A DNA stretch of 64,000 bases from Eledone cirrhosa (GCA_964016885.1 OZ024752.1:15190001-15254000); one strand, 5' to 3'; positions 18,108 to 19,986 are shown, counted from the stretch's first letter. Program-made: numbers and translations. The notes: generated by a model from the letters alone, not told the origin.

Positions 18108-18230
18108 GAATATAGACATAGAATATTCGAAAATATTCTGTATGTTTATAATAAACATTTTGAAGACCTAATCGCTATAGAATAGAATACGTCACGTATT
18201 ACAATTAGATTCTCGATAAAAGCAAGGGAA

Positions 18231-18273
18231 GTAATCTACGCGTTTCATTCTCGTTAGAAATCATCAGGACTAC
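18231..18273 (-). ncRNA. Minimal type I hammerhead ribozyme (identical copies at 18541, 18851, 19161, 19471)
   Basis: Reverse complement of 19753-19795, repeating at a 310-bp period. Confidence 0.9.
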
Positions 18274-19752
18274 ATATCCAGTGCTTTTATCGAGAATGAC
18301 ACAGCTAGAGACTTATAGAATACTTAGCTGTGTACAGGAACTGGTTTGAAAGAGCGGTTGCCGGTCCGGCAGAAATTAGAAATTGGAATAAATGCTCTGA
18401 AATAGCGATATATATGTGAATATAGACATAGAATATTCGAAAATATTCTGTATGTTTATAATAAACATTTTGAAGACCTAATCGCTATAGAATAGAATAC
18501 GTCACGTATTACAATTAGATTCTCGATAAAAGCAAGGGAAGTAATCTACGCGTTTCATTCTCGTTAGAAATCATCAGGACTACATATCCAGTGCTTTTAT
18601 CGAGAATGACACAGCTAGAGACTTATAGAATACTTAGCTGTGTACAGGAACTGGTTTGAAAGAGCGGTTGCCGGTCCGGCAGAAATTAGAAATTGGAATA
18701 AATGCTCTGAAATAGCGATATATATGTGAATATAGACATAGAATATTCGAAAATATTCTGTATGTTTATAATAAACATTTTGAAGACCTAATCGCTATAG
18801 AATAGAATACGTCACGTATTACAATTAGATTCTCGATAAAAGCAAGGGAAGTAATCTACGCGTTTCATTCTCGTTAGAAATCATCAGGACTACATATCCA
18901 GTGCTTTTATCGAGAATGACACAGCTAGAGACTTATAGAATACTTAGCTGTGTACAGGAACTGGTTTGAAAGAGCGGTTGCCGGTCCGGCAGAAATTAGA
19001 AATTGGAATAAATGCTCTGAAATAGCGATATATATGTGAATATAGACATAGAATATTCGAAAATATTCTGTATGTTTATAATAAACATTTTGAAGACCTA
19101 ATCGCTATAGAATAGAATACGTCACGTATTACAATTAGATTCTCGATAAAAGCAAGGGAAGTAATCTACGCGTTTCATTCTCGTTAGAAATCATCAGGAC
19201 TACATATCCAGTGCTTTTATCGAGAATGACACAGCTAGAGACTTATAGAATACTTAGCTGTGTACAGGAACTGGTTTGAAAGAGCGGTTGCCGGTCCGGC
19301 AGAAATTAGAAATTGGAATAAATGCTCTGAAATAGCGATATATATGTGAATATAGACATAGAATATTCGAAAATATTCTGTATGTTTATAATAAACATTT
19401 TGAAGACCTAATCGCTATAGAATAGAATACGTCACGTATTACAATTAGATTCTCGATAAAAGCAAGGGAAGTAATCTACGCGTTTCATTCTCGTTAGAAA
19501 TCATCAGGACTACATATCCAGTGCTTTTATCGAGAATGACACAGCTAGAGACTTATAGAATACTTAGCTGTGTACAGGAACTGGTTCGAATATTCTATGT
19601 CTATATTCACATATATATCGCTATTTCAGAGCATTTATTCCAATTTCTAATTTCTGCCGGACCGGCAACCGCTCTTTCAAACCAGTTCCTGTACACAGCT
19701 AAGTATTCTATAAGTCTCTAGCTGTGTCATTCTCGATAAAAGCACTGGATAT

Positions 19753-19795
19753 GTAGTCCTGATGATTTCTAACGAGAATGAAACGCGTAGATTAC
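19753..19795 (+). ncRNA. Minimal type I hammerhead ribozyme
   Basis: gtagtc CTGATGA t ttct-aacg-agaa t GAAA CGCG TA gattac. Intact core, palindromic stem III ACGCGT, predicted cleavage after GUA (19789). Stem I is extended by attctcgataaaagca/tgcttttatcgagaat. Confidence 0.92.
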
Positions 19796-19986
19796 TTCCC
19801 TTGCTTTTATCGAGAATCTAATTGTAATACGTGACGTATTCTATTCTATAGCGATTAGGTCTTCAAAATGTTTATTATAAACATACAGAATATTTTCGAA
19901 TATTCTATGTCTATATTCACATATATATCGCTATTTCAGAGCATTTATTCCAATATATATATATATATATACATAGAGATATATAG

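Follow-up and report, generated by a model that had tools for sequence, protein, structure and literature searches.

The tandem array of 310-bp units analysed here lies in a 64,000-nt stretch of DNA from Eledone cirrhosa (GCA_964016885.1 OZ024752.1:15190001-15254000; hereafter, the window) and belongs to a set of dispersed, nearly identical insertions that number well over a thousand, approximately 1,500 arrays in total. The repeated unit is non-coding, and the element is thus not an autonomous Penelope-like element (PLE). It is probably a very young, non-autonomous non-LTR retrozyme that is spread by the reverse transcriptase (RT)/GIY-YIG protein of a PLE, presumably one of the Neptune type.

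The array in the window comprises 4.77 exact units and 1.19 exact inverted units, in line with the approximately 4.8 and 1.2 units reported in the initial annotation. It is embedded in (TA)n (15101-18107 and 19953-20235), as was also stated there. The element consists solely of the repeated unit and has no LTR. Its GC content is 34.5%, and no ATG frame in the circular unit is longer than 30 aa, which bears out the earlier statement that an ORF is absent. Simple patterns for an RNA polymerase III A or B box found none in the unit. With phases numbered from the first base 3' of the hammerhead cut, the array has the following parts:

18107-19586, minus strand: arm A, 1,480 nt, the 310-bp unit in 4.77 exact copies arranged head to tail; the left insertion boundary is the RNA-sense 3' end of this arm, at site A (phase 130-139 after the cut)
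19585-19954, plus strand: arm B, 370 nt, 1.19 exact copies in the orientation opposite to arm A; its RNA-sense 3' end is site B (phase 165), where ...TTCCAAT is followed by TA
19585-19586, no strand: central 5'-to-5' junction, where phases 201 and 106 adjoin and overlap by 2 nt
19919-19954, plus strand: 'tail', the stretch of 26-35 nt between sites A and B, present at one insertion end only
19847-19954, plus strand: phases 58-165, a stem-loop domain with the CGCTATTTCAGAGC block, conserved in sister families
18054-18107, plus strand: left copy of an apparent target-site duplication, 54 nt inside (TA)n, of which 10 letters deviate from the TA pattern
19953-20006, plus strand: right copy of the apparent target-site duplication

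If arm A is extended over 18098-18107, one mismatch is included, at the point where the CATATATAT of the unit itself borders on the TA tract. The central junction would be the point where two cDNA ends were joined, and phases 58-165/172, which hold both start sites, may constitute the recognition region for the PLE RT/endonuclease. The true length of the target duplication in the window is uncertain, because the right copy continues as 6.4 copies of a 44-nt unit up to 20235. Several tandem copies of the duplicated target motif are often found beside an insertion, i.e., at 19953-20235 in the window and in the flanks of L031, L032, L035, L040, and L184; they may result from later slippage or from reiterative copying of the target.

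Six type I hammerheads are present in the window, one per unit, with the core C at 19759 on the plus strand and at 19507, 19197, 18887, 18577, and 18267 on the minus strand:

19753-19795, plus strand: type I hammerhead, predicted cut after GUA at 19789
19471-19513, minus strand: type I hammerhead, arm A copy, predicted cut after 19477
19161-19203, minus strand: type I hammerhead, arm A copy
18851-18893, minus strand: type I hammerhead, arm A copy
18541-18583, minus strand: type I hammerhead, arm A copy
18231-18273, minus strand: type I hammerhead, arm A copy
19728-19816, plus strand: 16-bp stem extending helix I, phases 249-264 with 12-27

Each copy reads GUAGUC-CUGAUGA-U(UUCU aacg AGAA)U-GAAA-CGCG-UA-GAUUAC, with a helix I of 6 bp (GUAGUC/GAUUAC), a helix II of 4 bp, at the base of which two U residues are mismatched (U.U, 10.1/11.1), and a palindromic helix III of 2 bp (ACGCGU). 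Because these three helices are present, the motif is the ordinary metazoan type I form and not the 'min-HHR', a name given to the form without helix III (PMC4209133). The intact type I hammerheads of the initial annotation stand, and the cut that it placed after GUA at 19789 is where the motif predicts it, but its description of them as minimal does not hold, given helix III. The Rfam search that it recommended gave no hammerhead family at the gathering score in the window, nor at E<=10 in 19560-19960. When the unit was dinucleotide-shuffled 5,000 times, none of the resulting sequences satisfied a hammerhead descriptor.

The unit is strongly self-paired in silico (fold z = -4.45). For a transcript with two hammerheads, the unconstrained minimum-energy fold is a double hammerhead paired through ACGCGU (-110.7 kcal/mol vs. 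-105.3 for two single hammerheads with helix III open, i.e., 5.4 lower), and the dimer-type action suggested earlier is thus favored in silico. The 16-bp extension of helix I shows compensatory changes in the sister family B according to a by-eye reading of the folds; these family A/B pairs were judged by eye, and the MAFFT alignment slips by 3 nt at helix III. Variants in the hammerhead region preserve pairing and spare 12 core positions, the core avoidance alone being not significant (p = 0.27). Activity of the ribozyme is predicted to be weak because of the U.U at the base of helix II, by analogy with HHR_Amex2 of axolotl, which has the same U.U base and 2-bp helix III and showed 22% cleavage in 1 h as a monomer (PMC7229834). 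Eight of nine predicted dimers of Xenopus did not cleave (bioRxiv 10.64898/2026.07.22.740005), and insertion by the PLE PAc of Anolis in vitro is independent of hammerhead cleavage (PMC11167929). Elsewhere in the unit, the hairpin loop ATTCTATAAG at phases 224-233 (19703-19712, plus strand) is invariant in families A, B, and D, whilst the surrounding stems differ; a role as tertiary contact or protein site is possible.

Copies in the 3.0-Gb genome (G000) were counted by exact sequence patterns. The 43-nt hammerhead core gave 4,033 exact matches and a reversed-pattern control gave 0; the number of units exceeds this core count, as several common haplotypes differ inside the pattern. Patterns specific for the ends of the arrays gave 1,412 A ends and 1,616 B ends, and nearly all of the end matches listed run into (TA)n. 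One subtype of the B end (71 matches) is found on 20 large contigs, C1 to C28, and on several small ones. Thus, the dispersed copies that the initial annotation proposed to look for do exist. Its proposal of a young non-LTR retrozyme is supported by this dispersal and by the low divergence within arms, which amounts to 144 minority letters in 132,174 nt in arms with at least three units (~0.1%). Informative target duplications were found in a minority of the arrays (54 nt in the window, 34 nt in L046, 26 nt in L075, and 11 nt in L072); they are readable where the TA tract contains variant letters and mostly unreadable in pure TA.

Six sequencing runs from four studies, with their nature (RNA or DNA) not recorded, were also considered. 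Runs X1 and X2 each gave one closed 340-nt contig and X6 a contig across the same joint. Run X3, which may derive from the source sample, gave 648 pieces whose loose ends lie close to site A or B. These results speak neither for nor against a circle, since tandem DNA yields an identical closed contig. The four runs X1, X2, X3, and X6 carry four organism labels and contain 90-100% of the unit's words; X1 and X2 have the exact haplotype of the window.

The anatomy of the insertions was analyzed in 91 arrays. Besides the one in the window, these comprise 10 selected by their hammerhead and 80 picked by end pattern, namely 40 through an A end, 20 through an unpaired B end, and 20 that were taken as ready A/B pairs. 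Apart from the window array, all are located on contig C1. A 5'-5' junction with an arm running outward on either side was found in 80 of the 91 arrays. In 75, a minus and a plus arm have one A and one B end, and in five, the same arrangement has one end outside the fetched stretch; the other 11 are single-armed. All 166 outer ends that were resolved lie at site A (84) or site B (82), in (TA)n, and all 75 fully resolved two-armed arrays have one end of each type. Site A is located 130-139 nt past the cut and site B 163-172 nt, their spacing being about 26-42 nt. Of the arrays selected by the hammerhead alone, 9 of 10 are two-armed, and so are, on inspection, 16 of the 20 'unpaired' B ends. Among the end-pattern matches listed, a divergent B partner was found for 68 of 86 A ends, and a divergent B for 0 of 100 B ends. 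These anatomy counts omit arms under 60 nt, the second array of L051 and of L060, and a short piece in the middle of L041. The fixed paired ends, the TA target, and the inverted 5'-truncated arm were not seen in the initial annotation, and they support the mobilization by a PLE that it had proposed. Site A coincides with the unit's own AUAUAUAU, and its position may therefore be set by annealing to a TA primer.

The arms have a mean length of 4.6 units, with a maximum of 22.9, and their lengths fit an exponential distribution (KS p = 0.13). Their 5' ends are spread over many phases, with 1 of 171 lying within 10 nt of the cut vs. 11 expected. Phases 13-30 are frequent among these 5' ends. An apparent gap in the 5' junctions at phases 284-12, noticed post hoc (0/95), was dropped when a second set gave 286, 288, 288, 295, and 308. 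The cut site bears no scar, as only 4 minority letters were found at the 10 surrounding positions in 424 crossings. At the 80 junctions, the two arms overlap by 1-7 nt in 44 cases and by more in 10, the latter often at the unit's own inverted repeats; eight junctions are blunt and 18 contain extra letters.

Each insertion carries its own sequence signature. Single-unit differences aside, a fixed haplotype is common to both arms in all two-armed arrays compared except L063, whereas sharing would be expected by chance in ~26% (calculated by hand from backbone counts). The sharing includes private variants and extends over up to 24 units; for example, a 2-nt deletion is present in 22/22 units of L052, C210A in 17/17 units of L055, and T119G in 17/17 units of L180. 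A variant private in the sample and present in every covered unit was found, by hand, in 18 of 110 arrays, where descent from one random unit would predict 12%. In total, 102 substitutions are singletons, and 33 different ones occupy every covered unit of at least one array. The diverged L054 was omitted from the substitution and shared-variant counts, and L194-L213, which are end pieces of 1.1-1.2 kb, were used for haplotypes only. Since both arms share one haplotype, private variants included, the arrays appear to arrive ready-made from one RNA. This favors, for most arrays, a template of one unit that was copied again and again, a circle being the simplest case.

There are exceptions. Of the minority letters that could be tested in both arms, 55 of 71 are unshared, but in L074, L156, and L167, a minority variant is found at the same ordinal unit in both arms; in L167, two units of one haplotype are followed by another haplotype in both. 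Such same-ordinal variants indicate that one molecule was read in identical order by the two arms. As a monomer circle cannot give them, the template in these three arrays was multimeric, or both RTs switched template together. In L063, the arms differ (A,A,A,A,G,G vs. G in all seven units), and in L052, L053, L079, and L184, a variant is repeated within one arm, indicating some local duplication or multimer copying. Thus, the rolling copying of a monomer put forward in the initial annotation agrees with the haplotype uniformity of most arrays but not with the three that call for multimeric or mixed templates. Uniform donor arrays would also yield uniform daughters; the monomer step is thus proven per haplotype origin and not per insertion, and the haplotype data do not set the share of events templated by circles.

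Two sister families exist. Family B has a unit of 314 nt, 67% identical to the 310-bp unit, with copies that are about 94-96% alike; family D (L193) is 64% identical. Both keep the two ends, the intervening CGCTATTTCAGAGC block, the core, and the palindromic helix III, whilst the stem sequences differ. In addition, short two-armed hammerhead inserts, referred to as family C, were noticed at L120 7560-7710, L116 685, and L122 4266; their helix II (UUUCU aa AGAAU) almost equals that of the 310-bp family, and their helix III is longer.

The genome is rich in PLEs. Of 10,596 candidate GIY-YIG matches, 150 were scored, and open frames of 844-1,096 codons encoding RT and GIY-YIG domains are present in G000. 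A protein search with the L112 frame matched PLE-like proteins. Locus L113 contains an intact RT+GIY-YIG frame of 1,096 codons with the CX4CxxC motif, which is given for Neptune and Nematis (PMC8557442). L113 is itself two-armed, with ends about 35-38 nt apart in TA, and 40 of 40 scored copies of its 5' part are 96-100% identical. Its B motif has 736 matches, and in 100 of 100 among the matches listed, the element ends with CATTTTCCAAT followed by TA. The retrozyme unit ends with CATTTATTCCAAT, so that both share a TTCCAAT|(TA)n end. The likeness to L113 is short and colinear over both end sites; 7 of 1,000 shuffles reach its score in what was a post hoc comparison. The L111/L112/L120 family ends with TTTCTAAT, as does the minor B end of the retrozyme. 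Extended homology between an autonomous PLE and the unit was not found in 42 PLE loci by blastn or with a profile of families A, B, and D, which detected separate short insertions only. From these sequence features, L113, a young, intact Neptune-type PLE, is a candidate for the mobilizing partner, a role for which its chances seem evenly balanced.

Several further elements were observed. A hammerhead-like motif with a degenerate core, in which UUGACGA replaces CUGANGA, is found in both arms of L113 at 6915-6955; the 3' side of its helix II, GCGUGAAA, is identical to that of family B. The window contains the following elements besides the array:

59560-60080, both strands: second two-armed TA element with a type I hammerhead in each arm (59712, minus; 59915, plus), a U.U helix II base, and a palindromic ACUAGU helix III; a related motif is present in L105
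55290-55530, both strands: divergent hammerhead-like cores at 55321 (minus) and 55496 (plus), with long helix II regions
20884-20925, minus strand: single hammerhead-like core at 20925 with a long helix II region, directly to the right of the array
50870-52710, minus strand: 5'-truncated PLE with RT and GIY-YIG remnants and a TA tract at its end
2645-5740 and 39802-41871, plus strand: broken LINE-type elements with endonuclease and RT matches, the first also with a zf-RVT match

A life cycle can be proposed as follows. Multimers would be transcribed from the arrays. Neighboring hammerheads would pair via ACGCGU and cut after GUA, thereby freeing 310-nt monomers, which a host ligase would close; the pairing is based on the fold in silico, and cleavage and ligation are assumed from what is known of the class (PMC7229834). 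The PLE protein would then bind phases 58-172 and nick both strands of (TA)n, a step in which the target and the fixed ends are observed. One nick would prime at site A, aided by the unit's own AUAUAUAU, and the other, on that same RNA molecule, at site B, which lies 26-42 nt downstream, as the shared haplotypes and ordered variants suggest. From there, each RT would copy the template for 0.1 to 23 rounds and halt at almost any phase, as is observed in the arms; this template would be a monomer circle in most events and a multimer in a minority. Finally, the cDNA ends would be joined through short overlaps or the unit's inverted repeats, as the observed junctions suggest, presumably by repair, leaving two divergent arms within a target duplication.

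Other explanations differ from this cycle in the template, in the origin of the long arms, or in the machinery. The two-site insertion by a PLE could have an uncleaved, linear read-through multimer as its usual template, with circles rare or absent and the uniformity of the arrays derived from their donors. The same-ordinal variants in both arms of L074, L156, and L167 agree with such a template, as do the predicted weakness of the ribozyme, with its U.U mismatch and 2-bp helix III, and the use of unprocessed RNA by PAc in vitro (PMC11167929), and a scar-free cut site is expected as well. However, each of the 33 all-unit substitutions would require a bottleneck of one unit, private all-unit variants are found in 18 of 110 arrays vs. 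three arrays with shared ordinal variants, most minority letters are not shared between the arms, and the hammerhead-region variants keep pairing and avoid the core, although the avoidance alone is not significant. Linear templates as the rule are therefore rather unlikely. Less probable still is that short PLE-type insertions of one to two units per arm were enlarged later by unequal crossover or slippage, a route of satellite growth that has been proposed (bioRxiv 10.64898/2026.07.22.740005). Uniform arms with shared private variants would also result, older copies of family B mostly have one to two units, and within-arm repeats occur in the four arrays listed above. Yet 102 singleton substitutions stand against only a few that are repeated within an arm, whereas growth by unequal crossover would spread variants through neighboring units and give variable ends. 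Here, the ends are fixed, singletons predominate, both arms have many units at about 0.1% divergence at dispersed sites, and the arm lengths fit an exponential distribution. The same ordered switch in both inverted arms of L167 is impossible by local growth.

A different retroelement, such as a LINE or a DNA rolling-circle element, would make the likeness to PLEs accidental. In L1 twin priming, one RNA is primed from two nicks in the target, and the cDNAs are joined through microhomology, which results in an inverted 5' arm. Moreover, LINE-type endonuclease and RT fragments lie inside the window, and extended PLE homology was not found in the 42 PLE loci. Against this very improbable alternative, the first site in L1 twin priming is the poly(A) tail and the second is variable, whereas in the Eledone arrays both 3' ends are fixed and internal, 26-42 nt apart and always one per arm, and both arms are multimers. 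The element also lacks a poly(A) or simple-repeat tail of its own, and L113, an autonomous PLE of the same genome, has a matching anatomy and terminal heptamer. A two-site tail has, moreover, been described as unique to PLEs (PMC11167929). As for the assembly or the library, fold-back in the TA tract could have generated the arrangement. The loci with the same two outer ends, unequal arms, and target duplications number more than 1,400, and their junctions and haplotypes are locus-specific. Inverted duplications adjoining long microsatellites are known as long-read artefacts, but such an origin of the family is extremely improbable.

Metazoan non-LTR retrozymes have been reported from coral, mussel, axolotl (Rtz331/Rtz353), and newt satellite repeats (PMC7229834, bioRxiv 10.64898/2026.07.22.740005). 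The Eledone element resembles them in its tandem non-coding unit with one type I hammerhead each, its self-paired fold, its long target duplication, and the presence of PLEs in the same genome. The class is recognized by a type I hammerhead in each of several tandem units of 150-450 bp (310 bp and six intact motifs here), the absence of coding capacity and a GC content below 50% (30 aa and 34.5%), dispersed copies with target duplications of >4 bp (>1,400 arrays), a highly self-paired monomer with a foldable ribozyme (found in silico), and autonomous PLEs in the same genome (also present). Further traits of the class are self-cleaving transcripts, accumulation of the monomer RNA in linear and circular form, and the lack of an LTR, a primer-binding site, and a polypurine tract, of which the lack of an LTR is observed here. 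However, the retrozymes of the accessible literature are head-to-tail repeats only and have their RNA demonstrated, whereas the Eledone arrays, known from DNA sequence, mostly have two divergent arms whose fixed 3' ends are paired and lie in (TA)n, each insertion having a single haplotype. Retrozyme repeats are described as lacking any conserved motif that would point to a partner (PMC7761336), whereas the Eledone unit has the conserved block at phases 58-172 with both ends.

Insertions of PLEs leave a footprint with an inverted 5'-truncated copy next to the element, a tail of 30-40 bp on one side, and a microsatellite as the target (PMC8557442). On AT-rich DNA, each of the two strands is cut and extended by PAc, with RT starting at two sites 30-40 nt apart, and its tail is the stretch between these two internal start sites (PMC11167929). 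The Eledone element shares with such EN+ PLEs (Neptune, Poseidon, and PAc) the inverted 5'-truncated copy, the tail at one end, the AT-rich or (TA)n target, and a type I hammerhead upstream of the RT start sites (PMC11167929, PMC8557442). Unlike them, it has no RT/GIY-YIG frame, the whole element being the 310-nt unit with up to 23 copies per arm, and extended homology to an autonomous pLTR was not found in the 42 PLE loci. MRC1 of the Chlamys group is likewise a non-coding PLE parasite with multicopy head-to-tail insertions, but it occurs in green algae, belongs to the clade with an N-terminal endonuclease, and is said to lack canonical hammerheads; Chlamys derivatives also have a clear 3' similarity to autonomous families, unlike the Eledone element (PMC8557442). 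In the openly available literature, apart from subscription papers and paper supplements, two-armed retrozyme arrays with fixed paired ends are not described, and subscription papers aside, neither are such arrays in cephalopods nor a link of retrozymes with ADAR editing.

The substitutions contain a possible trace of such editing. A>G accounts for 8 of the 33 all-unit substitutions vs. 6 of the 102 singletons (Fisher p = 0.006), and 7 of these 8 are located in confident stems (pair probability near 1), where no C>T is found (p = 0.013). A276G, at a UAG site, and A20G each occur on four backbones, and in L063, a switch from A to G is found part-way along one arm. The idea arose from the first 90 arrays; in 20 held-out arrays added later, two new A>G events (A216G, and A259G on a new background) were found vs. 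two T>C. It may be speculated that two PLE RTs roll round one 310-nt circle and that A-to-I edits made by host ADAR in its stems are inherited in every unit, a tentative proposal. Fair alternatives are structural selection, in which A-U to G.U is tolerated better than G-C to G.U, and template switching, through which a variant could reach several backbones.

That a PLE reverse-transcribes a circle in a rolling fashion has been suggested before, on the basis of co-occurrence (PMC7229834, PMC7761336). A 2026 preprint adds phylogeny and invokes local satellite growth for the arrays (bioRxiv 10.64898/2026.07.22.740005), and the origin of the tandem and inverted structures of PLEs has been called undefined (PMC8557442). 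The class of element is thus already known, and its two-armed anatomy may be common in retrozymes and simply have been overlooked. The family described here, with about 1,500 near-identical insertions that carry built-in sequence barcodes, shows the footprints of a PLE on a retrozyme: two fixed start sites, an inverted arm, and a TA target. It also shows that a single RNA is read by the two arms in one common order, and it favors arrays that are made in one go from a one-unit template. Since the RNA is defined, its start sites are mapped, and an intact enzyme is available as a candidate, both the spread of retrozymes and the origin of PLE structures can be tested in the published PLE assay. 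If the proposal is true, the arrays would be a full record of the joint cycle of a retrozyme and a PLE, with ADAR edits becoming new alleles.
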